Assembly: GCF_000025665.1 (NCBI RefSeq)
Contig: NC_013926.1
Location: forward strand, 720,001-752,000
DNA length: 32,000 nucleotides
Direction of reading: 5' to 3'
DNA from: Aciduliprofundum boonei T469
GTDB taxonomy: Archaea > Thermoplasmatota > Thermoplasmata > Thermoplasmatales > Aciduliprofundaceae
The stretch's first letter is position 1, and the number at the start of each line of letters is the position of its first letter. The translations under genes and the position numbers were made by a program. Below the pieces are notes generated by a model, which saw only the letters and a list, made by a program, of their open reading frames with translations, did not search any database and was not told where the DNA came from. This document shows, piece after piece, positions 7,856-30,365 of the stretch.

Positions 7856-8722
7856 TCAATTCTTATAAGGGTTGCCGTATCTATCGCGCAACTTGCAAAA
7901 AGCGCAAATTTCACCACTTGTAGGCTCACCGCATTTTTTGCATTCTCGCAGCTCTCTCCTCTCCTCTGGAAAGAAATCTGCCATCTCCCAAATGGAGAGA
8001 ATCATCTGGTACCTGAAATTCTTCTTTTCTGCCTCTATTTCGTAGAATATCTCTTTCCAGCCTGAGAACTTTGCTAGGGGACATTTATCAGAGGAGTAGG
8101 GCACATTGTTGAGCTTTGCATACATCCCTATCTCCTTATCCCCTAAGAGATAGAGAGGTCGAATCTTTGGAAGCATCTTTGGGTGCTCGCTTGGTAAATA
8201 CGGTACCATGTTTCTGTTCCACTGATAATTTTTGGCAAGTGTATTTTTGAAGAAGAAATCCAGGAAATCATCCATATTGTGCCCCGTGGTAACAACGCTT
8301 GCTCCATTCTCCCTTGGCACCTTGTTCATCAGGTACCTCTTCACCGTTCCGCAGGCGGAGCAGGGTTTTCTTCTCACATTTTCAATTCCGAACCCATACT
8401 CCTCTCGGAGGTTTGTGACGATGAGCTCCACACCATATTCTTTACAAGCATTCCTTACTAATTTCTCCATCTTATCCGAATGCTCGCCGATTCCCAGGTT
8501 TATAAAATACCCAAATATATCGTAATCTCTCTCAGCAAAGTAATGCAGGAGCACCATACTATCTTTTCCTCCGCTGAGAGCTATGGCAATTTTTCCTTCA
8601 GGCTTGTATTTCTTTAGCACTTTTTCAATTCTTCTCTCAAATAACCTGTTGAAATCCTCCTTGCAGAGGTTCATTCCGAATGCGTACGTAACTGCCTCTT
8701 TACCACAAATCTTACACCGCAT
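7856..8722 (-). CDS. PP-loop ATPase, TtuA/Ncs6-type tRNA 2-thiolation enzyme
   Basis: PP-loop SGGKDS. N- and C-terminal CxxC zinc fingers (CKICG...C; CKKCG...CAFC). Fe-S ligand candidates PCSACG and DKCP. Confidence 0.8.
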   Translation of the reverse strand: MRCKICGKEAVTYAFGMNLCKEDFNRLFERRIEKVLKKYKPEGKIAIALSGGKDSMVLLHYFAERDYDIFGYFINLGIGEHSDKMEKLVRNACKEYGVELIVTNLREEYGFGIENVRRKPCSACGTVKRYLMNKVPRENGASVVTTGHNMDDFLDFFFKNTLAKNYQWNRNMVPYLPSEHPKMLPKIRPLYLLGDKEIGMYAKLNNVPYSSDKCPLAKFSGWKEIFYEIEAEKKNFRYQMILSIWEMADFFPEERRELRECKKCGEPTSGEICAFCKLRDRYGNPYKN

Positions 8723-9885: not shown

Positions 9886-10707
9886 CTATGTTAATCCTCC
9901 AATCATGTATGCAATCAAACCTATTATCATTCCAACTTTGGCATATTGCTGTCCTTTCCTTGGATTTTTAAATTGGATTAATGCGGCATATATGAATATT
10001 GCGTCTGAAATTAGAACGGTGGAGAGATAGTAAATACTAAAACCCATACATACATATGGTAAAGGACTAAATGCAACTGCAAGGATGAAAAATATTAGGG
10101 CTATTATACCTGCCTCTGTTCGTCCAACTTTTTTTGGAAGTGTTATACGATTTATATCCCCTTCCATATCCTCAATATCCTTGACTATCTCCCTTCCCAA
10201 ATTTGAAGCAAAGGCCATTAGAGCGAATATGGTTATTCGAAGTATGGCTTCTACGCTAAAAATTGCAGCACCAAATATGAAAATTAGGCCCACAAGGATA
10301 CTTATAGTGGTATTCCCAGAAAGCCCTTTGTTTTTCAAATTTGATTCATAAACATACATGGCTATTTCTGCCGCAATAGCAATTATCAATGTAATAAAGT
10401 TGATGAGAGATGAAAAAATTAGAGCCAATATAAACATAGATATGCCAAAAATTAGAGCATTCTTAGGCTTGATCTTACCAGATGGTATGGGTCTCTCGGG
10501 GTGATTAATCAAATCCACTTCCTTATCATAATAATCGTTTAGAGCGTTTCCCCCTGCAACTGCAAAAAACACAACAAACATTCCAAATATTATATTAAGC
10601 CAGTAATTGCCTATGGTATGACCCTTAACTATTATGGCAACCATAATTATCGCTATGGATGCCATTGCGCAGTTGATGGGACGCATTAATTTAATGTATG
10701 CATTCAC
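9886..10707 (-). CDS. UbiA-family prenyltransferase, digeranylgeranylglyceryl phosphate synthase-like
   Basis: Multi-TM protein with Asp-rich motifs NALNDYYDKEVD and KDIEDMEGD. GTG start with TATTATAA about 25 nt upstream (leaderless-type). Confidence 0.85.
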   Translation of the reverse strand: MNAYIKLMRPINCAMASIAIIMVAIIVKGHTIGNYWLNIIFGMFVVFFAVAGGNALNDYYDKEVDLINHPERPIPSGKIKPKNALIFGISMFILALIFSSLINFITLIIAIAAEIAMYVYESNLKNKGLSGNTTISILVGLIFIFGAAIFSVEAILRITIFALMAFASNLGREIVKDIEDMEGDINRITLPKKVGRTEAGIIALIFFILAVAFSPLPYVCMGFSIYYLSTVLISDAIFIYAALIQFKNPRKGQQYAKVGMIIGLIAYMIGGLT

Positions 10708-19019: not shown

Positions 19020-22000
19020 TTATTCCTCAAGATCTTCTTCTGAGGATCCTTCCTCTGTTTCTTCGGAATTCTCTTCTTTTTCCATTTCTTTTTCTCTGAC
19101 TTCCCTTGGTTTTTTACCCTTTTTCACCATTGCTACTGCTATCACTATAATTATGATTATTATCACTAGTATAGAAAGCCCAATGACGAGGCTAGTCATG
19201 CCACCTGCTTCTTTGATTTGGAAGGTTATTTTGGCTGTGTTCGAATTGCCGGCTTTATCTACTGCTTTGATGATTACGGTGTGTTGCCCCACGCTTAAGC
19301 CTGTGAAGTTGTAAGATGTCTGTGTTTCAACTTTTGTCCAGCTTCCGTTATCTATCTTTATCTCGTAGTATGCGATTCCGAGGTTGTCGCTACCGCTCCA
19401 AGATACTACCACATAGTTATTCGTTGTATTGTAGTTCTCCGTTGGAGAAGTGATCTCTATTGTAGGCGCCTGTGTATCTACTGTTATTGCTATGGATTTC
19501 TCCTTGGAATTTCCCGCTTCATCTACTGCTTTGACATAAATGGTATGCTGTCCATCCTGGAGATTTAAATTATATGATGTGGAATTTCCAACATTCTTCC
19601 ATGCTCCATTATCCACTTTTATTTCATAGTATGCAATTGCAAAGTTATCGCTGCCGCTCCATTTTACTGTGATAGAAGAGCTGTTTGTTATCATGTTATT
19701 CTCTGGAGCAGTTATATTTAATGTTGGAGCTTTTGTATCTACTTTGAAGCTAAAGGATGTTTGATTGTAATTTCCAGCTTTGTCATATACTCTCAAGACA
19801 ACATTATGCAAACCGTTGCTTAGATTTGTAAATGTGTATTCGTTCACATTGCCTATGTTATTCCAGTTGCTGCCATCTAATTGAATTTCAGAGTAATTCA
19901 CAGCTACATTATCACTTGCAATCCATTTTAGTGTAATAGTATTTGTGTTTATCCAAGAGCCACTTTGAATACTCATATTCCACTGCACTGTTGGAGGTAT
20001 AGTATCTATTGAGAAGTTCAAATATACTGTTCTCCTGTTTCCTGCAGCATCCATGCCCAAAAGGGTTACTTCATGTTTTCCGCTTTTCAACCCTTGGGCT
20101 AAGTACTGTGTATTGCTTCCAACAGGCATTGGAAGATTGTTATCGATAGTGATCATAAATATAACCTTGCTTTCATCGCTATATGTCCATTTTATCAATA
20201 CATTTGATGTGTTAACATAAGAATTCTCCTTTGGAGATATGAAGTGTATCTGTGGTGGAGTTGTATCAACCTCAAACGATACCTGTGCGATTGCGGAGTT
20301 ATTGGAGAAATCAAATGCTTCTACATACACTGTATGCTGTCCATCTTTAACATTGTTGAATGTGTATTTGGTTGCATTGCCGACATTTATCCAGCTTCCA
20401 TCATCTAGCTTCACCTGATAATGGGATATGCCGATGTTATCTGTACCGTTCCAGTAAACCGTTATTGAAGAGGTTGCCAATATTTTTCCGTTTGTGGGTG
20501 AGCTTATTGACACTTTAGGAGGCACGGCATCCCAAGCTTTCATGAGTGGATAATAATCTTTTGCAGAGCCTCCGGGTATTACATAAGGAGTATCTCCGAA
20601 TCCATCATGGTTTGCATCGGTACCGTTGTAATCGCTCCAGTAATTACCTCCAACTGGCGGCGCTAAAGACCATGTGTTGTTCTCATTGTCATATGCTTGA
20701 TATTTGTTATTTATGAAATTATTGTGATATATCGTGTTATTATAAGAACTGCTAACCCTCAGGCCGTATCTATTGTTTGAGAAAGTATTGTTGTTTATGA
20801 CACTATTCTTAACACTGTACATCACTATTCCGAATATGTTGTTTGTGAAATAGCTGCCAAATACCTTTATGGAATTGGAATACCTTATGGTAACTCCCCA
20901 GTAAGAGCTATTCACCATGCTGTAGAGAACTTCTACATTGGATGAACGCTCTATGAATAACTCGCCCACGCCATCTATGGTCACATTATTTAGAGTTACA
21001 TTTGTTGAGTAAAATACTCCAATATACCCTGCGTCTACATTTGCTAGTGTATATCCATCCTTGTTATTGATGTAGTAAAGCGGTTTACCACCAACTGTAT
21101 TGTTTGAATATATGGTTTGATTGTAATAGAGAGCTTTTGGATATGAGGACACATATACTGGATGTGTGTTGTTAAAGAATTGGTTTGATGCAAGGGTATT
21201 GTGATAAGAAGCGTAGAAGAATACACCATAGTAATTGTCGTAGATTTTGTTCTTCATTATATATCCATTTTGTACATTATGAAGCCCTATACCATAGCCA
21301 CTTGAAGTATTATGTAAGTAACATTTTTCAATTATGAAGTAGGCGGTTGTATTGGTAATGCTTATTGCATAAGAACTACCATTGGCATCTATGTCCCACC
21401 AACCTATGATGTATGGATTATCTTTAGTGCCATTGCCTCCTATGACACCGTTGCTTGCAGTGAAATCTGAATTCGAGTTAATTTTTATTGTATGGAATGG
21501 TTGTATTGGCCTAAGATATGCTCTGACAATTGCATCATGCGAAGAGTCCTGTAAAGCAGGGACATCGGGAGAGTTATCGGATACCTGATATGGTTTTCCG
21601 GGTATGTACTTGTTGGGGTAATATTCGATGTGGAATGAGGTAATTATCATCTTCTTGCTCCATTTGTGTGCATAAAGGAAGAATTCATTAGAGGAGTTAT
21701 AACTGAAGTTGCCCATAAAGTCAGTCAAATCCACTGCTAAGAATGTTGGGAATGGATGGTCTCCTCCGTTATAAGAGGTCGGCGAGATGTTTCCAAATAT
21801 TGAGCGTTTTATCTGAATTGGATGAGAAGGTGAACCAATACCAAGGTCTATTGGAGTGATTCTCGTACCTGGATGATTTGGATCAACATTCCATGTGGCT
21901 AATAATTTTGGCTGGTAGTTATGTCTAGGTGTCATATAATAAGCATCAGGCCAACCCTGACCCATGGCTAGTATTTTGTACATTGCTTTATATGTTATCC

Positions 22001-23018
22001 AGTAGTAACCTCCTACACCCCAGCCGGTTCCCCAGGAGTTAACTATCTTGAAAGCTCCTTGATCTCCATTATCCTTTATAGTATCATTCCAGCCAACTAT
22101 TGTTTGGGCATGATTGGGAGAACCGCTTGCATCATACTCACTGTACGAAATTATGTAATTTCCTCCGTTATTGAAGATATTGTCATATTCATCTGCATCT
22201 ATTGCAAAATTAACTGTGTAGCCTTCAGCAAGTACAGCTTTTATGGCATTGGTTAAGTTATCAACTTGCTGTTGTGTTGGAGCGTTGTTTGTTCCTACAG
22301 TAGTGTTTATTATGGCACTCACATTTAGTACATATCCATCCTGTATCCTATATAATGGGGCTTCTCTCCAAGCAGCTTCATCTCCCCAAGAGACAGCATC
22401 ATGGTCGTTGTAGGGCATTGTGTACATTGTAGCTCCTCCCAAACGATATAGAACTAACATATTTGCTATGAAACTTGAACCTTGATCAGAGCCACCATTC
22501 ACTTTGTTGTAAGTCCATGCAGGACTCATAAGATGATGCTTGTTGTAGCCATAGTGGGCATCTGTCCAGTTATGTGTGTATGCCTGGAGCCAACCCTCGC
22601 TGTAATATGTTACAGCCCAAGCTGCACAAGAACCCTGGGCACCCTGATTGCCTACTTTAGGAAATCTCGGATCCTTTGATAAATCTAGAGTTGAGGGAAA
22701 TCCTCTTGGAGCATATACAGAATTTACTACCATTAACTTTCCAACAGAGTTTTCTATGGTGTGCCTAGAGGGTGTTTTGAAACCGGTATAATATCCTCCA
22801 GCTTTCAAATTACCCGTTTGTATATCCTTTATATGTTCCATCATGAACTTTGCGTCACCTTGATTGAAATAATGGATGTCGTAAGCAATAGGTTCATCTA
22901 CAGGTTTGAATAAATGTTGGGTATTGCTATGATGTGCCTGTGCAAGAGCTGGTATCACTGAAAAGCCACTGAACAACAATACACTTATCACTATTATAAC
23001 TATCAACGCCTTTTTCAT
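19020..23018 (-). CDS. Large membrane-anchored surface protein: signal peptide, papain-like (C1) cysteine peptidase, beta-sandwich linker, NosD-like right-handed beta-helix, five Ig-like repeats, TM, charged tail
   Basis: C1 catalytic set Q..GSCAAWA, NHAQTIVGW and NSWGTGWGVGGYYWI. Beta-helix repeats (NNTFSNNRYGLRVSSSYNNTIYHNNFINN) end in GGNYWSDYNGTDANHDGFGDTPYVIPGG..DYYPL. The TM is LVIGLSILVIIIIIIVIAVAMV. The ORF-track start at 23045 is a TTG. The ATG at 23018 (MKKALIV...) has GGGTG and AATATTAATAAA upstream. Confidence 0.9.
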   Translation of the reverse strand: MKKALIVIIVISVLLFSGFSVIPALAQAHHSNTQHLFKPVDEPIAYDIHYFNQGDAKFMMEHIKDIQTGNLKAGGYYTGFKTPSRHTIENSVGKLMVVNSVYAPRGFPSTLDLSKDPRFPKVGNQGAQGSCAAWAVTYYSEGWLQAYTHNWTDAHYGYNKHHLMSPAWTYNKVNGGSDQGSSFIANMLVLYRLGGATMYTMPYNDHDAVSWGDEAAWREAPLYRIQDGYVLNVSAIINTTVGTNNAPTQQQVDNLTNAIKAVLAEGYTVNFAIDADEYDNIFNNGGNYIISYSEYDASGSPNHAQTIVGWNDTIKDNGDQGAFKIVNSWGTGWGVGGYYWITYKAMYKILAMGQGWPDAYYMTPRHNYQPKLLATWNVDPNHPGTRITPIDLGIGSPSHPIQIKRSIFGNISPTSYNGGDHPFPTFLAVDLTDFMGNFSYNSSNEFFLYAHKWSKKMIITSFHIEYYPNKYIPGKPYQVSDNSPDVPALQDSSHDAIVRAYLRPIQPFHTIKINSNSDFTASNGVIGGNGTKDNPYIIGWWDIDANGSSYAISITNTTAYFIIEKCYLHNTSSGYGIGLHNVQNGYIMKNKIYDNYYGVFFYASYHNTLASNQFFNNTHPVYVSSYPKALYYNQTIYSNNTVGGKPLYYINNKDGYTLANVDAGYIGVFYSTNVTLNNVTIDGVGELFIERSSNVEVLYSMVNSSYWGVTIRYSNSIKVFGSYFTNNIFGIVMYSVKNSVINNNTFSNNRYGLRVSSSYNNTIYHNNFINNKYQAYDNENNTWSLAPPVGGNYWSDYNGTDANHDGFGDTPYVIPGGSAKDYYPLMKAWDAVPPKVSISSPTNGKILATSSITVYWNGTDNIGISHYQVKLDDGSWINVGNATKYTFNNVKDGQHTVYVEAFDFSNNSAIAQVSFEVDTTPPQIHFISPKENSYVNTSNVLIKWTYSDESKVIFMITIDNNLPMPVGSNTQYLAQGLKSGKHEVTLLGMDAAGNRRTVYLNFSIDTIPPTVQWNMSIQSGSWINTNTITLKWIASDNVAVNYSEIQLDGSNWNNIGNVNEYTFTNLSNGLHNVVLRVYDKAGNYNQTSFSFKVDTKAPTLNITAPENNMITNSSSITVKWSGSDNFAIAYYEIKVDNGAWKNVGNSTSYNLNLQDGQHTIYVKAVDEAGNSKEKSIAITVDTQAPTIEITSPTENYNTTNNYVVVSWSGSDNLGIAYYEIKIDNGSWTKVETQTSYNFTGLSVGQHTVIIKAVDKAGNSNTAKITFQIKEAGGMTSLVIGLSILVIIIIIIVIAVAMVKKGKKPREVREKEMEKEENSEETEEGSSEEDLEE
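19212..20531 (-). repeat. Five tandem Ig-like modules of about 87-89 aa (coding repeats)
   Basis: Each unit follows (T/A).PP.(V/I)...SP.N......(I/V).(V/L).W.(G/A)SDN..(I/V).(Y/H)Y.(I/V)K.D.G.W..VGN.T.Y.F..L.DG.HT(V/I).V.A.D.AGN. Boundaries are good to about +/-3 nt. Confidence 0.75.
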
Positions 23019-23069
23019 TTTATGCACCCGGGCGGAGTATATCAATCTTTATTAATATTTTTTTCGTCT

Positions 23070-24671: not shown

Positions 24672-25784
24672 ATGAAAGTTAAATCTGTGAATGGACCCAA
24701 GAAACTCGCCAATGTTTTGCTAAGCGTGAATGTTGGCTGGAGCCATGAGCCCGTGGGAATGAGAGGAATATCCCATTTTCTCGAGCATTCTGTTTTTCTC
24801 GGAAGTGGTGAGCATCCAGAGCCCGATATGGATGTGGGAAAATATGGAGTTATGCTAAATGGGGAGACGCAAGCGGATAGAACGAATTTCTTCTTTTCAT
24901 CCCTTCCTGAAGATGCTGAAGATGTTTTGGAGATTCTATTGTCTCTCGTTTACCATCCATCATTTCCACCCGAGAAGGTAGAGGAGGAGAAAGAGAGCAA
25001 AATAATTCCTGCCGTTGTAAAAGAGAGCGATTTCTATCCATGGGAATTAGCTTATGAATGGGCTCGCAACCTAATTTTTGAATGGGATTTCAGGTACAGT
25101 ATGGGAACAGAGGATGAGTTCCGCAGCATAGGAATTGAGGAGTTAAGGGAATGGCACAGGAAACACTATCACTCGGGAAATTCTCTTCTTCTTGCTTCTG
25201 AGGGTATTGATATTCCAAACATTACCATACCTGAGGGGCACAGCAGACCTGAAGTGCAGAGAATAGTATATGGGGAAAGGGAGAAAATAATTGAAAAGGA
25301 TATGAAAAACGCTGAAATCGTGTGCGCATTTCCTTTGGACAAATATGATATTCGCACATATCTTCTAAGCATCTTACTCGGAAACTATGCAACCTCCAGG
25401 CTGTGGAGAGAGTTTCATAGGGATGCGTACATGGTTGAATCGAAAGTGGAATGGCACAATGGAAAAGGAGGATTTTTCCTCTATGTGGGGGCAAATTCCC
25501 GTGATTTTAAGAGTATATGCGAGAGAATGGAGAATCTATTGGAGGGTTTGCATTTTACTGGTGAGGAAGTGGAAATAGCGAAGAAAATTTTTGCAATAGA
25601 AATACTGGAGAGAGATAACAGTGTTTATAGGATGGAAAGCATTTTAAATATTGATCCCGAGTTGAGATTTGGAAGTGTGGAAAAAATTTTGGGTGCAATA
25701 GGGGAATTGGAATTGCACGATGTCGATGAGTACGCTTATCAAGTTTTAAATTTAGAAGAAATGAGGAGAGTTGTGGTGAAGTAA
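24672..25784 (+). CDS. M16 (pitrilysin/insulinase) family zinc peptidase, short single-chain form
   Basis: Inverted zinc motif HFLEH (GISHFLEHSVFLGS) with a downstream E in LNGETQADRTNFF. Confidence 0.8.
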   Translation: MKVKSVNGPKKLANVLLSVNVGWSHEPVGMRGISHFLEHSVFLGSGEHPEPDMDVGKYGVMLNGETQADRTNFFFSSLPEDAEDVLEILLSLVYHPSFPPEKVEEEKESKIIPAVVKESDFYPWELAYEWARNLIFEWDFRYSMGTEDEFRSIGIEELREWHRKHYHSGNSLLLASEGIDIPNITIPEGHSRPEVQRIVYGEREKIIEKDMKNAEIVCAFPLDKYDIRTYLLSILLGNYATSRLWREFHRDAYMVESKVEWHNGKGGFFLYVGANSRDFKSICERMENLLEGLHFTGEEVEIAKKIFAIEILERDNSVYRMESILNIDPELRFGSVEKILGAIGELELHDVDEYAYQVLNLEEMRRVVVK

Positions 25785-25793
25785 TACCCAAAT
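25783..25793 (+). repeat. Left copy of the direct repeat bracketing the ABC cassette (AATACCCAAAT...)
   Basis: aatacccaaatTTctgAGtttgtaaaga here versus aatacccaaatctgtttagaaaca at 29020. The 11-nt core is exact, with looser similarity over about 28 nt. Confidence 0.45.
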
Positions 25794-25859
25794 TTCTGAG
25801 TTTGTAAAGATAATAATGCCAAAAAATATATTTATTGGAAGAACATAACATCCCACACT

Positions 25860-26732
25860 ATGAAAATTGTGTCTATAATTGCATTTGCATGCACAATCCT
25901 ATTACTATTTTCGTTAATAAATATATCTAATTTAAATGTAGAGAGCAATAAAGATGCCTTGGCAAAATCTGCGGACTTCTACAATCCCAATACGCCACCG
26001 AAAACATTTGAAGACCTGTTTCTCCCGCATTGGTTTGAGAATGGAACATTTACTTTTAATGTGCCTCAATATATGCATCATTTTAAATTGGCAGGTACAT
26101 TTGAATGGGCGCCATATTACCACTATGGTGCTCAAAAAGGTAGACCTGCTATTCTTAATGTAACAGATAATTATGGAAATGTTGTATGGCATGCGAATAA
26201 TACTATTTATAATCAGCCGATAGGTGCTTCCGGGAGATCAAAAACACCTATTAAAGGAGATAAAATATTTATAAGAGTTAAAGGAAAGGTATTATTACAG
26301 TTTGGGATTTGGGGAGACTGGACAGAGAACATTCTTAACGGTGGAATTTATTCGCTTACCTTCAATGCAGGTAAAATAGCGTTGTATATGGATTACTACA
26401 ATCCAACGAATCTAAACACCTTCTATTTTAAATCCTCTCAACCTGTATATGCATATCTATTTGATGCAGAAGGGAGATTAATAGATCACACAGAAAAGCC
26501 AGTAAAAGAAGGTTCAGTAACAGAGCCCTATGACGCGTCACCGTTTCTGACATTCATCAGGCCCAATGGAGAGAATGGAAATGTAACGGTGCAATTCTGG
26601 GTTGGGTACGAAGAGAAGAAGAGCAGTCCAACAGGTGCGTTTATAGTGATTGGGATATTGGTAGTGATAGCGGTAGCGATGTATATTTATGCAAAGAGAG
26701 CAGTGTATGAAAAGAGGAGGAAGAGAAGGTGA
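25860..26732 (+). CDS. Hypothetical secreted protein with a C-terminal TM anchor (cassette gene 1)
   Basis: 290 aa with signal-like N-terminus MKIVSIIAFACTILLLFSLINIS. A beta-rich ectodomain carries WAPYY and GIWGDW motifs. The TM IVIGILVVIAVAMYIY is followed by a KRRKRR tail. TATA-like ATATATTTA lies about 35 nt upstream. Confidence 0.75.
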   Translation: MKIVSIIAFACTILLLFSLINISNLNVESNKDALAKSADFYNPNTPPKTFEDLFLPHWFENGTFTFNVPQYMHHFKLAGTFEWAPYYHYGAQKGRPAILNVTDNYGNVVWHANNTIYNQPIGASGRSKTPIKGDKIFIRVKGKVLLQFGIWGDWTENILNGGIYSLTFNAGKIALYMDYYNPTNLNTFYFKSSQPVYAYLFDAEGRLIDHTEKPVKEGSVTEPYDASPFLTFIRPNGENGNVTVQFWVGYEEKKSSPTGAFIVIGILVVIAVAMYIYAKRAVYEKRRKRR

Positions 26733-27586
26733 ATGCCATAGAGGTCAAAGATCTGAATGTATGGTACGGAAAATTTCAAGCTTTAAATGAGATTAATTTT
26801 TATGTACCGAAGGGATTGATAGCGGGGCTTATAGGACCCAATGGTGCAGGAAAGACCACTTTAATAAAGAGCATTGTTGGCATACTACCCTATGAGGGAG
26901 AGATAGAGGTTATTGAGGGAGATAACATAGGGTATCTGGCGGAAGATGAGGGATATTACGGGTACTTAACGGGCTACGAGTATCTAAGATACTTCAGCGA
27001 CCTTTACGGATTTGATAGAGATAAAATATATGAATTACTGAAATTGGTAGGATTGGATGGCAAGGAGAATGTTTTAATTAGCAAGTATTCCAAGGGTATG
27101 AAGAGAAGGTTGGGCATTGCGAGAACTCTTTTATCGCACTCTAGTGTAATAATATTAGACGAGCCTCTGAGCGGTTTAGATCCAAACATAAAGAGCGAGC
27201 TCAGAAAGATAATCTTGGAGATATCCAAAGAAAGGACTTTTTTAATATCCTCGCACCAGTTGAGGGATATAGAAGAAATTTGTGACTGGATAATAATGAT
27301 AAACGAGGGAAAGCTCTTGGGATTTGGCAAGCCTGAAGATTTATTAGAAGAAGTTAAGCCGGTTAGGGAGATAATCATACAGGTAAAGGATGTGGATGAA
27401 AGCGTAGTTGAGGAACTAAAAAGGATAGAAGGAGTAAAAAATGCAATTTTAAGGGGAAATATAATAACGATAGAATACGGTGGAGACGATGATTCTGAGA
27501 TTTTCAAGTATTTGCTCTCAAAGGGATTGAAATTTAATTTGAAGAGTGATACATTAGAATCCATATACAGGGAGGTATACAGATGA
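26729..27586 (+). CDS. ABC transporter ATP-binding protein (ABC-2/CcmA/NosF-like)
   Basis: Walker A GPNGAGKTT, signature YSKGMKRRLGIA and Walker B VIILDEPLSGLD. GTG start in a GTGA overlap, with AGGAGG upstream. Confidence 0.9.
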   Translation: MNAIEVKDLNVWYGKFQALNEINFYVPKGLIAGLIGPNGAGKTTLIKSIVGILPYEGEIEVIEGDNIGYLAEDEGYYGYLTGYEYLRYFSDLYGFDRDKIYELLKLVGLDGKENVLISKYSKGMKRRLGIARTLLSHSSVIILDEPLSGLDPNIKSELRKIILEISKERTFLISSHQLRDIEEICDWIIMINEGKLLGFGKPEDLLEEVKPVREIIIQVKDVDESVVEELKRIEGVKNAILRGNIITIEYGGDDDSEIFKYLLSKGLKFNLKSDTLESIYREVYR

Positions 27587-28326
27587 AGGCATATCCTATA
27601 ATAAGAGAGAGTGTGAGGAGTTCAATTTTAGATTTTTCATTTCCTTTGGTTGCAATATTGCTTTTAATCGTGGATATTGTAATAGGTGTTGAAAACAAAA
27701 TATTCACAGAGACACCCACACCTTATCCGTTCTGGCTCATATTCTTTTTTGATTCTTTCATTTTCATGATATACGGAGGATATTTGGGCACAAAATACTT
27801 TGCGAGAGAGTTTGATAAAAACACGATGATATCCTTGGTAGTCACTCCTGCTGGGCGCAATGGAGTTTATGTTGGCAAGTTGGTTGGAGGATTGATAGTG
27901 ATAGGTACCCTATCTCTAATTGTGTTCTTTCAAATTTTGGCATTTTTGGGAGTGTGGGGAGATATAGCTTATCTTTTATGGTACTGGTACGGAATGCACA
28001 CACTTGTATTGTTCATCTCTTCTTTATTTACCATGTTCTTGGCAATTGCCATAGGGGTACTGGTTAAAAAAACAGGTGCAACTCTCTTGGTCTCCTCTTT
28101 TTATGTTATTTTATCTCTTTTCATTCTCGCATTTATGCCCATGAGATACGCTGTGGATGATAGAGTGTATTATTCCATATTTTTCCCTAACTTGGGAATA
28201 TGGTACTTGAAATTATCCATATCCTCCTACGCTATAGTATATTCTTTCCCCATATTGCTAGGTGTGATAGGAACTATATTTATTGCATTAATTTCATTTT
28301 TCCTGTTCAAGGGGGTGAGATTGTGA
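27583..28326 (+). CDS. ABC-2 type permease (six TM, NosY-like architecture)
   Basis: 247 aa polytopic protein. ATGA overlap with the ATPase stop, and GGAGGT upstream. Confidence 0.8.
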   Translation: MKAYPIIRESVRSSILDFSFPLVAILLLIVDIVIGVENKIFTETPTPYPFWLIFFFDSFIFMIYGGYLGTKYFAREFDKNTMISLVVTPAGRNGVYVGKLVGGLIVIGTLSLIVFFQILAFLGVWGDIAYLLWYWYGMHTLVLFISSLFTMFLAIAIGVLVKKTGATLLVSSFYVILSLFILAFMPMRYAVDDRVYYSIFFPNLGIWYLKLSISSYAIVYSFPILLGVIGTIFIALISFFLFKGVRL

Positions 28327-29000
28327 ATTTGAGGATAATTGCCATGTTCATTACGGTAATATTCTTGTTCAGCATCTTTGCCTCTGCTGGAGCCCATGCC
28401 GAAGGAAGTGAGGAAAAATATTACAATTTTTTCAGTTTGTTCTTTCCCGGATCTCAAAAATATGCAATTTCTATTAGTTACTCTCCCGGTGGTGTGATTC
28501 ACATAGAGCCCTATAAGCTTAGCAGTTTGAAGGTTTACATAGATAAGATTAATGCCAGTGTAAATCCAGATTTCTATTTGAAGTTTATAGTAACTAAGGG
28601 ATTCTGGGTTCCCTACTACACGCCATCAGCTTTCAATCCTATGGCATACTACGAGAAAGTTAAAAGGTTCAATGAGTGGCTAAATGCAACAGGTTCTCTC
28701 ACGGGAAATGTTGCCTATGTAGAGCCGAAGATGGTTCACTTTAAAAAAGGGATGGATAATCTAACGGTAAATTTGAAAGTCAAGATATATGGATGGGGAA
28801 ATGATTGGGGTATAACGATTTTGGCAAGGGAGCACAATGCCAGTATGTGGATTCCAGTTAGCGGCGTGCCTTTGAGCGTGCACAAAGGGAGCGATTTATG
28901 GAGCATTTTACCTTATCTCTATTCTTCGGCTATTATAGGAACATTGATTTTCATAATCTTCAAACTTAGGTATCTTGATAGAAAGAAAAGAGAGAAATAA
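28323..29000 (+). CDS. Hypothetical secreted protein with a C-terminal TM anchor (cassette gene 4, distant paralog of gene 1)
   Basis: The start was reset to the GTG at 28323 (GTGA overlap with the permease stop); the ORF-track start at 28200 lies inside the permease gene. Signal peptide LRIIAMFITVIFLFSIFASAGAHA, motifs WVPYY and YGWGNDW, TM IIGTLIFIIF and a KKREK tail. Confidence 0.7.
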   Translation: MNLRIIAMFITVIFLFSIFASAGAHAEGSEEKYYNFFSLFFPGSQKYAISISYSPGGVIHIEPYKLSSLKVYIDKINASVNPDFYLKFIVTKGFWVPYYTPSAFNPMAYYEKVKRFNEWLNATGSLTGNVAYVEPKMVHFKKGMDNLTVNLKVKIYGWGNDWGITILAREHNASMWIPVSGVPLSVHKGSDLWSILPYLYSSAIIGTLIFIIFKLRYLDRKKREK

Positions 29001-29019
29001 ATCTAATTTTTTAGTATAG

Positions 29020-29030
29020 AATACCCAAAT
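29020..29030 (+). repeat. Right copy of the direct repeat bracketing the ABC cassette
   Basis: See 25783-25793. It lies 20 nt after the stop of cassette gene 4 and about 50 nt upstream of thiC. Confidence 0.45.
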
Positions 29031-29081
29031 CTGTTTAGAAACACTTATTTACCTTTGCACAATGAAGGTTTGGTGAGTTCT

Positions 29082-30365
29082 ATGCAGATGAAGAGTGCGA
29101 AGAATGGGGAATACACCGAAGAAATGAGATATATTGCGAAGAAAGAAGGAGTAGATATTGAAAAGCTCCGCAGGGCTGTTGCTAAGGGGCATGTTGTTAT
29201 ATTGAGGAATACCAAGCATAATGTTGAGCCCGTTGGAGTTGGCTCTGGATTGAGGGTTAAGGTTAATGCAAATATAGGCACTTCAATGGATATTGTGAAT
29301 GTTGAGGCCGAAGTGCGTAAGGCAAAAATTGCCAAAAAATATGGGGCGGATACCATAATGGATTTGAGCACGGGAGGCAATCTCCCCGAGATTAGGCATA
29401 GGATAATGAAGGAAGTGCCAATGGTAATAGGTACCGTGCCAATATATGAGGCAGCATGGCAGATGCTTGAGAGAAAAAAAGCAATTGTGGAGATGAGCGA
29501 GGATGATATGTTCAATGCAGTTGAATCACACTTGAGAGATGGTGTGGATTTCCTCACGATTCATGTTGGCGTAACGAGGGAGGCAGTGGAGAAGATGAAG
29601 AAGCATCCTCGCGTTGTGGGCACTGTTTCTCGGGGCGGCACATTCCATGCGGCTTGGATTCTGCATAATGATAAAGAGAATCCCTTTTACGAGAATTATG
29701 ATTATCTTCTTGAATTACTTGCCGAATATGATGCCACCATAAGTTTAGGCGATGGATTGCGCCCTGGAGGCTTGCCAGATGCCACCGATTTTCTGCAAAT
29801 TCATGAGTTGTATACCATAGGAAGGTTGGTGAAAAGGGCTAGGGAAAAAGGTGTGCAGGCAATGGTAGAAGGCCCTGGACATATTCCAATTGATCAAATA
29901 GAGGCAAATGTGAAGATGGCAAAGATTGCCACGGATAATGCACCTTTTTATGTTCTTGGTCCCCTTGTGACGGACATCGCGTCTGGCTATGACCACATCA
30001 CCGCTGCCATAGGGGGTGCCATAGCAGCCAAGGCAGGCGCTGATTTCCTGTGCTATGTTACTCCTGCCGAGCATCTTGCTTTGCCCAATGAGGAAGAGGT
30101 AAAACTGGGGGTAATAGCAACGAGAATAGCTGCACATGCCGTGAATCTAACAAGGTTTGAAGATGAATACAAATGGGATTACGAGATGTCTAAAGCCCGT
30201 GCCTCCCTTCGTTGGGATGAGCAACTAAATCTCAGTATAGACAAGGAGAATGCAATAAAAATAAGGAAAGAGAGGTATCCACACAGTCCGCAGGTATGTA
30301 CAATGTGTGGAGAGTTTTGTGCCATAAAAATATTGAGAGATTATCTAAACGAGGGAAAAGAATAA
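29082..30365 (+). CDS. thiC: Phosphomethylpyrimidine synthase ThiC
   Basis: Conserved throughout (NANIGTS, TIMDLSTGG, VEGPGHIP, C-terminal CTMCGEFCAIK). The ORF-track start at 29055 is a TTG. The ATG at 29082 is preceded by GGTGAG. Confidence 0.95.
   Translation: MQMKSAKNGEYTEEMRYIAKKEGVDIEKLRRAVAKGHVVILRNTKHNVEPVGVGSGLRVKVNANIGTSMDIVNVEAEVRKAKIAKKYGADTIMDLSTGGNLPEIRHRIMKEVPMVIGTVPIYEAAWQMLERKKAIVEMSEDDMFNAVESHLRDGVDFLTIHVGVTREAVEKMKKHPRVVGTVSRGGTFHAAWILHNDKENPFYENYDYLLELLAEYDATISLGDGLRPGGLPDATDFLQIHELYTIGRLVKRAREKGVQAMVEGPGHIPIDQIEANVKMAKIATDNAPFYVLGPLVTDIASGYDHITAAIGGAIAAKAGADFLCYVTPAEHLALPNEEEVKLGVIATRIAAHAVNLTRFEDEYKWDYEMSKARASLRWDEQLNLSIDKENAIKIRKERYPHSPQVCTMCGEFCAIKILRDYLNEGKE

Follow-up and report, generated by a model that had tools for sequence, protein, structure and literature searches.

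A probably mobile ABC-2 exporter cassette with two membrane-anchored beta-sandwich ectoproteins in Aciduliprofundum boonei

The window, i.e., the whole stretch of DNA analysed, comprises 32,000 nucleotides of the genome of Aciduliprofundum boonei T469 (contig NC_013926.1, positions 720,001 to 752,000) and contains a cassette of four coupled genes in the order UnkA, ABC ATPase, ABC-2 permease and UnkB. The cassette, its repeats and the two housekeeping genes beside it all lie on the forward strand. On the left, a gene for an M16-family peptidase (24672 to 25784; Pfam Peptidase_M16 and M16_C) ends with a TAA stop codon (25782 to 25784) that overlaps the left 11-bp direct repeat, AATACCCAAAT (25783 to 25793). 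The repeat is followed by a cassette-borne upstream region (25794 to 25859), which is 93.6% identical to that of the sister species G001 and contains a TATA-like TATATTTA at 25827 to 25834, ~30 nt upstream of the UnkA ATG, that may be the cassette promoter. UnkA (25860 to 26732; 290 amino acids, ATG start) belongs to an orphan family. Its stop codon is overlapped by the GTG start of the ATPase gene (26729 to 27586; 285 amino acids), which in turn overlaps the permease gene (27583 to 28326; 247 amino acids). The last gene, UnkB (28323 to 29000; 225 amino acids), starts with GTG and represents a second orphan family. The stop/start overlaps, read directly in the sequence, are GTGA (26729 to 26732), ATGA (27583 to 27586) and GTGA (28323 to 28326), so that open reading frames and overlaps agree with the original prediction of four translationally coupled genes in one ABC-2 cassette. 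Judging from these overlaps, the four genes would be co-transcribed. The 3' spacer (29001 to 29019) has a T6 run at 29007 to 29012, which is likely to be an archaeal oligo-T terminator, and the right repeat, again an exact AATACCCAAAT (29020 to 29030), starts 19 nt past the UnkB stop. It is followed by the conserved thiC upstream region and thiC (29031 to 30365; Pfam ThiC_Rad_SAM, 1.5e-190). The upstream region holds AGAAAC and CTTATTTA at 29044 to 29051, and the start codon of thiC is likely the ATG at 29082 rather than the TTG at 29055.

The ATPase matches ABC_tran (PF00005) at 2e-23, and its translation contains GPNGAGKT, SKGMKRRLG, VIILDEP and SSHQ, i.e., Walker A, ABC signature, Walker B and H-loop. 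It has a C-terminal extension and falls into a DrrA/GldA-like class. The best NCBIfam match of the ATPase, GldA (TIGR03522), runs end to end (residues 3 to 283), but its 183 bits stay below the cutoff of 402.6, and the match to the lantibiotic-protection model TIGR03740 (6.9e-42, 143.6 bits) is also below its cutoff (309.75). The models for NosF and NosY were not among the best NCBIfam matches. The permease reaches ABC2_membrane_2 (PF12679) with 27.3 bits (cutoff, 27.2) and ABC2_membrane_4 (PF12730) with 27.4 bits (cutoff, 27.0), and its homologues on other contigs show the same weak matches. By these matches, the ATPase and the 6-TM permease are predicted to form an ABC-2 type exporter, with the permease qualifying by a small margin.

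As had been predicted, UnkA and UnkB both begin with a hydrophobic segment, followed by a beta-rich ectodomain, and end in a TM helix and a basic tail, and neither has a known domain, with nothing found for either in Pfam and NCBIfam; when PADLOC and the PDB were included, there was no sequence match for UnkA, UnkB or the associated protein UnkC (see below). In the AF2 model of UnkA, two tandem beta-sandwich ectodomains (about residues 57 to 157 and 164 to 251) lie between the N-terminal hydrophobic helix and the C-terminal TM helix. In the AF2 model of UnkB, a signal-peptide-like N terminus (AHA|E) precedes a single Ig-like beta-sandwich, into which a helix (106 to 127) is inserted, and the TM helix and the basic tail follow. 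The two proteins had been proposed to be paralogous, but they do not look related: BLASTP of one against the other found nothing, the family HMMs did not recover each other in hmmsearch of the genome, and hhalign aligned nothing but the N-terminal LFFP motif (10% probability) or the C-terminal TM (22%), leaving the ectodomains unmatched. The two shared motifs on which paralogy had been based do exist in these two sequences, but neither W.PYY nor GIWGDW is invariant in either family. Foldseek neighbours of UnkA are two-domain jelly-roll, CUB and CBM-like folds, including carbohydrate-binding and SID1-ectodomain beta-sandwiches, and those of UnkB are single Ig, Fn3 and MG-like folds; the top neighbours do not overlap, and the matches are generic beta-sandwiches with TM-scores of 0.2 to 0.35. 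A short N-terminal Y..F..LF(F)P motif is common to both proteins. The UnkA family is rare: of 401 genomes sampled from the phylum, only 1 had it; seven further matches, which covered only the C-terminal ~55 positions, were taken as spurious.

The genomic site of the cassette is known in empty and in occupied form. In four genomes from two genera (G002, G003:C99, G004 and G007), the M16 stop is followed by a single copy of the 11-mer and then by thiC, exactly as expected from the predicted 3.2-kb insertion with duplication of the 11-mer. The occupied site was also found in one sister species, G001. As the alignment of these sites shows, in the A. boonei clade the cassette apparently went in precisely between the stop codon of M16 and the promoter of thiC, and the inserted unit would have brought along its own upstream region and T-run while the 11-bp target AATACCCAAAT was duplicated. 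A circular intermediate could have integrated through a single crossover at the 11 identical base pairs, or the insertion could have followed a staggered cut and been catalysed in trans; both fit. With the tree (G000,(G001,G003)), in which G000 is A. boonei T469, polarity takes two events whatever the model.

Between A. boonei and G001, DNA identity is 76% in the M16 gene and 94 to 96% in the cassette, with the step exactly at the left repeat. Indeed, dS is 1.2 to 1.4 in the M16 gene and stays so up to its last 100 codons, drops to 0.09 to 0.22 (about 0.2) in the cassette and in thiC rises from 0.35 near the cassette to 0.7 to 0.9 farther away. Since cassette dS is ~0.2, compared to 0.35 to 1.4 in the flanks, these values argue for horizontal exchange, in which the cassette, once inserted, passed between species; codon constraints could account for part of the low cassette dS. 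The genes for ATPase, permease and UnkB have a dN/dS of ~0.05 to 0.1 (permease, dN 0.02 and dS 0.22), and the ATPase is 98% identical at the amino acid level to its counterparts in G001 and at locus L040. It is highly improbable that the cassette was instead ancestral between M16 and thiC and was lost from the empty genomes by recombination between the 11-bp repeats: such a deletion would leave exactly one copy, as seen at the empty sites, and G003:C99 is empty despite being the sister of the occupied G001, but the empty sites are spread over four genomes in two genera, cassette dS between the two occupied species is 3 to 6 times below that of the flanks, and a fuller five-gene form with UnkC is found elsewhere, in many other contexts.

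One segment of the cassette departs from this pattern. In codons 76 to 146 of UnkA (26085 to 26297), a mosaic patch within the first beta-sandwich, DNA identity to G001 falls to 59% within surroundings of roughly 95%, and dS is about 2.0 (dN 0.40) compared to about 0.2 around it. The patch also has the lowest ectodomain conservation across 12 homologues. This hypervariable segment is a new observation.

The repeat by itself is only mildly unusual: AATACCCAAAT occurs six times in the genome, with 2 to 3 copies expected. The third copy within the window is at 8506, and all four copies other than the bracketing pair are inside long ORFs; the 11-mer is not a common intergenic word. The looser flanking similarity that had been reported beyond the 11-mer did not hold up, since 1388/2000 and 1912/2000 shuffles scored as well. 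The right repeat of G001 is AATACTCAAAT, with one mismatch to AATACCCAAAT, and in G014, where the context is unrelated, the UnkB stop is followed by a version of the motif that agrees at 10/11 positions, for which the chance probability was estimated at roughly 0.01. The insert is filled by its four ORFs and contains no recombinase, integrase or transposase gene, and we found neither an inverted repeat pairing the two cassette ends nor an attC-like structure; the term "mobile" is therefore used here on comparative evidence only. Having neither terminal inverted repeats nor a transposase or casposase gene, the cassette is not an IS element, transposon or casposon. The target duplication of the A. 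boonei casposon is 14 to 15 bp, and that of the cassette, with 11 bp, is shorter. The cassette resembles small genomic islets with short direct repeats, be they target-site or att-core duplications, in its exact insertion, the 11-bp duplication with one copy at empty sites, the sharp divergence boundaries and the intact signals of the adjoining genes, but it lacks a transposase or integrase and has neither terminal inverted repeats nor a tRNA target or an attC-like hairpin. As for an integrase-mediated integrative element, the direct repeat agrees with the single copy at the empty sites and would have to be the att site, the insert encodes no recombinase, and such an enzyme may have acted in trans.

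This set of four genes, in unchanged order, was found in at least 8 other contexts, among them relatives at about 20% identity. They include G014 (L019), L025, L026, L027, L040 and L045; L029 and L031 are distant relatives, for which the UnkB homologue was confirmed by hhalign (96.8%). With their order and overlapping stops and starts kept to about 20% identity, the four genes form a fixed unit. In other contexts, a gene for a secreted protein of about 237 amino acids, UnkC, usually lies head-to-head with UnkA. UnkC has an ordinary Sec-type signal peptide. It is intact and head-to-head with UnkA in L025, L040, L044, L045, L029 and L030, and in at least six contexts the two divergent genes share the promoter region that separates them. 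In G014, where the codon of an invariant W reads TAG, and in L027, UnkC is decayed and the cassette is intact. A search of the A. boonei genome revealed no UnkC, and the cassette also stands without it in G001 and L026. The upstream region of the A. boonei cassette is unlike that in L040, L025 and L027, where the divergent UnkC gene sits, and at the 3' end the similarity to the L040 cassette stops just past the stop codon.

Of the known ABC systems, LanFEG with the LanI lipoproteins and LanH/NukH (also McbEF, SkfEF and BcrAB) resembles the cassette in that the genes for a DrrA-class ATPase and an ABC-2 permease are accompanied by those for small extracytoplasmic accessory proteins anchored in the membrane, and also in its link to a secreted product and its patchy distribution with "orphan" copies that stand without the producer gene. 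There is, however, no sequence or family membership: the TIGR03740 match is below cutoff, one permease gene takes the place of LanE plus LanG, and no lantibiotic genes were found in any cassette context examined (L025, L026, L027 and L040). Moreover, the accessory proteins are C-terminally anchored beta-sandwiches instead of lipoproteins, the host is an archaeon, and the product linked to the cassette is not a modified peptide but a folded protein of about 237 amino acids. The resemblance to LanFEG/LanI is thus only a functional analogy, and immunity is putative. The gliding-associated GldAFG of Bacteroidota, with the auxiliary protein GldG, is similar in that GldA is the best match of the ATPase and the permease is of the PF12679 type. 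In GldG, a large extracytoplasmic domain is flanked by a hydrophobic segment at the N terminus and a TM at the C terminus, and the ectodomains of UnkA and UnkB are placed in the same way. Yet, the cassette lacks gliding genes and has not one but two accessory proteins, each half as large as GldG, the ATPase stays far below the GldA cutoff, and UnkA and UnkB do not match PF09822 (ABC_transp_aux).

Taken together, the cassette is probably a lineage-restricted, horizontally mobile accessory operon for an ABC-2 exporter and two membrane-anchored beta-sandwich ectoproteins. We propose that UnkA, ATPase, permease and UnkB form one envelope complex, in which UnkA and UnkB, placed above the permease, would present the substrate or recognise it, and the hypervariable first beta-sandwich of UnkA may be the recognition surface. 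Judged by gene order, the association with UnkC is equally compatible with immunity, cargo handling and anchoring. We tentatively favour, by analogy to bacteriocin immunity through LanFEG plus LanI/LanH, a pump for protection from or immunity to UnkC-type proteins secreted by neighbours over a dedicated secretion device, since the A. boonei copy is under purifying selection yet has no UnkC. Somewhat more speculatively, UnkC and the four genes may possibly constitute a hitherto undescribed archaeal system of a secreted toxin ("archaeocin") and ABC-2 immunity. In it, UnkC would act as the effector that is secreted, and its core may resemble a cradle-loop or double-psi barrel; the four-gene pump would be the immunity determinant, whose specificity would be set by the recombining hypervariable beta-sandwich of UnkA; in A. 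boonei, the cassette would then represent an orphan immunity islet that spreads among vent archaea by horizontal gene transfer.

A generic envelope exporter that exports or flips a lipid, glycan or small hydrophobic compound, as GldAFG, NosFY or Wzm-Wzt do together with extracytoplasmic adaptors, and for which UnkC is an unrelated fellow traveller, appears rather unlikely. The best families of the ATPase (GldA and DrrA-type exporters), the PF12679/PF12730 permease, the carbohydrate-binding, CUB-like and SID1-ectodomain folds among the matches of UnkA, and the persistence of cassettes under purifying selection in the three genomes or loci that have no UnkC would all suit such an exporter, but hitch-hiking hardly explains why the head-to-head linkage to UnkC persists down to about 20% identity, and a patchy distribution driven by horizontal transfer together with a hypervariable patch in UnkA is atypical of a housekeeping envelope exporter. 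It is more doubtful still that the cassette is dedicated to the release, maturation or surface tethering of UnkC and that the A. boonei copy is a leftover without client. The shared divergent promoter region is what one would expect of such a function, and the four genes, being coupled stoichiometrically, would suit a machine; however, with its Sec-type signal peptide UnkC needs no ABC exporter, and a machine without client would not be expected to remain whole and under purifying selection, as the cassette does where UnkC is absent or decayed (G000/G001, G014 and L027).

The original prediction, in which paralogous ectodomain proteins and a NosFY-like unit act with the NosD-like beta-helix of a giant surface protein encoded 2.8 kb away, is already largely refuted and very improbable. 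The common architecture and N-terminal motif of UnkA and UnkB speak for it, as do the NosD and Beta_helix Pfam matches in the giant protein and the general likeness to NosDFY(L) copper/sulfur-delivery systems, in which ATPase and ABC-2 permease also have an extracytoplasmic beta-rich partner. Against it are the dissimilar ectodomains, the variable motifs, the different fold neighbours and the ranking of the NosF and NosY models. Furthermore, the giant protein, a protease/Ig surface protein, is retained with its synteny in G002, which has no cassette, and the link to NosD is therefore unsupported. The neighbours of the cassette vary by context, and in other contexts carrying Pfam annotation no NosD-like gene was called beside it and there was no common neighbourhood. 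The cassette has no NosD, NosL or nosZ, and UnkA and UnkB, which have no NosD or Beta_helix match, are beta-sandwiches, not beta-helices, in the AF2 models; we therefore reject membership in NosDFY.

The analysis corrects two tempting but unsupported readings of this locus, the paralogy of the ectoproteins and the NosDFY-like link, and defines three unannotated protein families, UnkA, UnkB and UnkC, as one conserved functional unit around an ABC-2 exporter. With both empty and occupied alleles at hand, it also provides a rare case, resolved to the base pair, of a recent cassette insertion and interspecies exchange in Aciduliprofundum. For this cultivable thermoacidophile from deep-sea vents, it offers the testable hypothesis that archaea may antagonize each other and carry the matching immunity.

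The genome of Aciduliprofundum boonei T469 is a single contig of 1,486,778 bp with 39% GC, of which the window covers positions 720001-752000, and the cassette lies in it between the genes for an M16 peptidase and ThiC. It consists of the genes for UnkA (25860-26732), an ABC ATPase (26729-27586), an ABC-2 permease (27583-28326) and UnkB (28323-29000), with UnkA and UnkB being membrane-anchored ectodomain proteins. Successive genes overlap by GTGA, ATGA and GTGA, exactly as described in the original prediction. As read directly, the insert also carries a TATA-like TATATTTA at 25827-25834 upstream of UnkA and a T6 run at 29007-29012. In Pfam and NCBIfam scans, the ATPase matched ABC_tran, with GldA and DrrA as the best equivalog-type matches, every one below cutoff, and the permease was matched marginally by PF12679 and PF12730. 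UnkA and UnkB had no match in Pfam or NCBIfam. None of the scans against Pfam, NCBIfam and PADLOC, nor such PDB searches as were made by sequence or profile, gave anything informative for these two proteins or for UnkC, a secreted protein encoded beside the cassette in other genomes. The closest database entry to UnkA was [quoted passage not shown] and a literature search found no mention of a UnkA-ATPase-permease-UnkB cassette.

The cassette had been proposed to be an insertion between M16 and thiC, and this was borne out by relatives that have the two genes side by side with a single copy of the bracketing repeat. In A. boonei, the 11-mer AATACCCAAAT is present exactly at 25783-25793, where it overlaps the M16 stop, and at 29020-29030. 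In four relatives (the complete genome G002, G004 and contig C99 of G003, all of the same genus, and G007 of another genus), the M16 stop precedes a single (A/T)TACCCAAAT copy, directly after which come the conserved upstream region of thiC and thiC itself. The closest empty site, that of G003:C99, reads GAGATAATACCCAAAT followed directly by ATGTTTAGAAATGCTTATTTACC, i.e., the A. boonei left junction joined to the right junction. In the sister species G001, the same site is occupied, and the right repeat copy has one mismatch. Therefore, the insert comprises 3237 bp with an 11-bp duplication. Direct reading showed that it leaves intact the M16 reading frame and the promoter-like BRE/TATA of thiC (AGAAAC plus CTTATTTA). 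The latter, which is conserved, precedes the thiC ATG at 29082 (window 29055-29084); the longest thiC ORF begins at TTG 29055, but conservation in five genomes favors ATG 29082 (MQMK...). At the empty sites, the spacer between M16 and thiC has too little room for a TPP riboswitch. The metagenome-assembled genome (MAG) G003 at first seemed to have both alleles, empty in C99 (L024) and occupied in C31 (L003). C31 is 2.7 kb long and G001-like, carries a frameshifted M16 fragment and the cassette, and has lost the left repeat by a deletion of about 28 nt. This contig was probably mis-binned or comes from a second strain, and the two-allele reading of G003 was set aside.

By itself, the 11-mer is only weakly meaningful, and its significance comes from the sites in the relatives. 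Six copies are present in the genome, all on the plus strand, versus 2 to 3 expected from Markov models; 4/6 lie within 33 kb of one another, and chance repeats of similar length number dozens in the 3.4-kb cassette region. The "looser flanking similarity" claimed beyond the 11-mer was no better than that of shuffles. We also checked whether the 11-mer is a common intergenic or promoter word genome-wide and rejected this because the four noncassette copies are all inside long ORFs, in antisense orientation. These copies are at window 8506-8516 and at genome positions 495685, 761373 and 1455006.

A. boonei (G000) and G001 were then aligned over the whole locus, with synonymous divergence calculated according to Nei-Gojobori and thiC read from ATG 29082. 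M16 has 76% DNA identity; the value rises abruptly to 94-96% at the very position of the left repeat, is held through the cassette and falls to 89% in thiC. Likewise, dS is 1.2-1.4 in M16, the last 100 codons included, 0.09-0.22 in the cassette, 0.35 in the first 100 codons of thiC and 0.7-0.9 further on. The identity step and the dS pattern show that the cassette is much younger than the species split and was exchanged between the lineages; the exchange tract has a sharp left edge at the repeat, with recombination tailing off within thiC. The ATPase, permease and UnkB genes have dN/dS values of about 0.05-0.1, which shows that they are functional. An origin of the empty sites by loss of the cassette is disfavored, since the four empty genomes are spread over two genera, since deletion conflicts with the dS pattern and since a fuller form of the unit exists elsewhere. 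No recombinase is encoded in the insert, and no terminal inverted repeats were detected at the cassette ends.

One segment of the cassette behaves differently. UnkA codons 76-146 (window 26085-26297) have only 59% DNA identity between A. boonei and G001, with a dS of about 2.0 and a dN of 0.40, whereas their surroundings in the cassette are 94-96% identical with a dS of about 0.2. Across 12 homologues, these codons are the least conserved segment of the ectodomain. A. boonei UnkA is 84% identical to that of G001 and 71% identical to that of L040, the cassette of a close relative, while the ATPase shares 98% identity with both counterparts and UnkB 96%. Because dS is so high, the patch looks like a mosaic replacement via recombination with divergent alleles, as is usual for recognition surfaces.

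Unrelated neighborhoods also contain these four genes, with their order and the overlaps at their junctions preserved: after SRP54 and gltD-like genes in genome G014 (L019), near an ECF transporter at L025, near ZnuA and a radical-SAM gene at L027 and L028, and adjoining a DDE transposase and hyp genes at L026, with a second UnkA upstream. The cassette is also present at L040 and L045, and at L044 only UnkC and UnkA are visible before the contig end. At L026 (3-374 and 3791-4543), the second UnkA is represented by its C-terminal part at the contig start and precedes the UnkA of the cassette in tandem, and the DDE transposase gene comes after the cassette. Directly after the L025 cassette, at about 10175-10310 (minus strand), the sequence looks by eye like an intron-containing tRNA gene (GCCCGAG...GGTTCGAATCCCGGCTCGGGCA, minus strand); ARAGORN reported no tRNA there. 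When 1.8 billion representatives were searched with a profile, UnkA relatives sharing about 20% identity were retrieved. Among the distant loci, L029 has all four genes, the fourth being a UnkB homologue (hhalign, 96.8%); L031 has UnkA and the ATPase plus a third gene that is cut off; and L030 has two UnkA-like genes, one of which is followed by an ATPase gene. A match of the UnkA profile to the Calx-beta repeat protein P0021 was judged spurious, as it consisted of nine short stretches on a GKG.GQF repeat. The UnkA family is rare: in a sample of 401 genomes from across the phylum, A. boonei alone had a full-length match.

In most other cassette contexts, UnkA is accompanied by UnkC, an unannotated family without a Pfam match. 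UnkC is a secreted protein of 208-239 amino acids that carries a signal peptide, lacks a TM helix and is encoded head-to-head with UnkA at L025 (6210-6929, minus strand), L040 (3882-4595), L044 (4229-4933, minus strand), L045 (2378-3088, minus strand), L029 (1-624, minus strand) and L030 (2330-2989); at L043, it is head-to-head with a gene cut off at the contig end. The motifs SPYPR.GG.GY, IG...GAYVDV and WKVVSGWW are conserved. Profile positions 116-153 weakly matched designed double-psi beta-barrels (7du7 and others; E = 1.7e-4, ~12 bits per half), which may reflect a cradle-loop or GD-box element, or chance, and is taken as a lead. UnkC is absent from A. boonei and G001, and the A. boonei insert begins inside the region that elsewhere is the divergent UnkC/UnkA promoter region. 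In G014, the UnkC gene (L019, i.e., G014:C24, 5680-6393, minus strand) has a TAG at a family-invariant Trp codon next to an intact four-gene cassette, and the UnkC gene of L027 (2908-3279) is fragmented. In G014, moreover, GAATACCCACAT at L019 9690-9701, 7 nt past the UnkB stop, matches the A. boonei repeat at 10/11 positions in a completely different genomic context (estimated chance probability, about 0.01), a hint that this word might move together with the unit. An apparent left copy, TTACCCAGAT, upstream of G014 UnkA was rejected; it aligns with the nonrepeat promoter spacer of L025 and L027.

UnkA and UnkB had been described as paralogues, but this was unsupported by BLASTP, profile-profile, HMM and fold searches. 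BLASTP found no similarity between them, and profile-profile comparison gave probabilities of 10% (12- and 6-sequence profiles) and 22% (20- and 10-sequence profiles), with the alignment confined to an N-terminal Y..F..LF(F)P motif or the C-terminal TM helix. Each family HMM recovered only its own protein in the A. boonei genome, and the supposedly shared motifs, W.PYY and GIWGDW, vary within the enlarged alignments. AF2 predicted two tandem beta-sandwiches for UnkA (pLDDT 78) and one Ig-like sandwich with an inserted helix for UnkB (pLDDT 77). Foldseek neighbors, all at low TM-scores, were SID1/SIDT ectodomains, Vip3 C-terminal domains, CUB and HA70 for UnkA and Ig, Fn3 and macroglobulin-type domains for UnkB. 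The common architecture and the shared LFFP motif at the N-terminus may stem from both proteins docking to one partner, not from common descent.

A link to NosD had been suggested by a giant surface protein with papain-like protease, NosD-like beta-helix and Ig-repeat parts (window 19020-23045, minus strand). However, the cassette-less G002 keeps this protein beside MTAP, MptA and M16 (L017 9563-13579), and the other contexts of the cassette have no common neighborhood. Its nearness to the cassette in A. boonei is incidental. Thus, the insertion part of the original prediction stands, whereas the paralogy and the Nos interpretation do not.

Translational coupling and invariant gene order suggest that the ABC-2 exporter and the two C-terminally anchored ectoproteins would form a stoichiometric membrane complex. 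By analogy with LanFEG plus LanI/LanH, we tentatively favor a protection or immunity pump against UnkC-type proteins. The hypervariable UnkA patch, the patchy distribution and the horizontal mobility of the unit speak for such a pump, and a generic envelope exporter appears rather unlikely. UnkC is a Sec-type substrate, so no ABC exporter would be needed for it, and the cassette persists, under purifying selection, in genomes with a lost or broken UnkC; both points favor the immunity pump, and a machine for the handling of UnkC is improbable. As an immunity pump, the A. boonei cassette would be an orphan immunity islet. The accessory cassette itself is real, cleanly delimited and recently transferred, and it extends the ABC-2 systems by a variant whose accessory families are novel.
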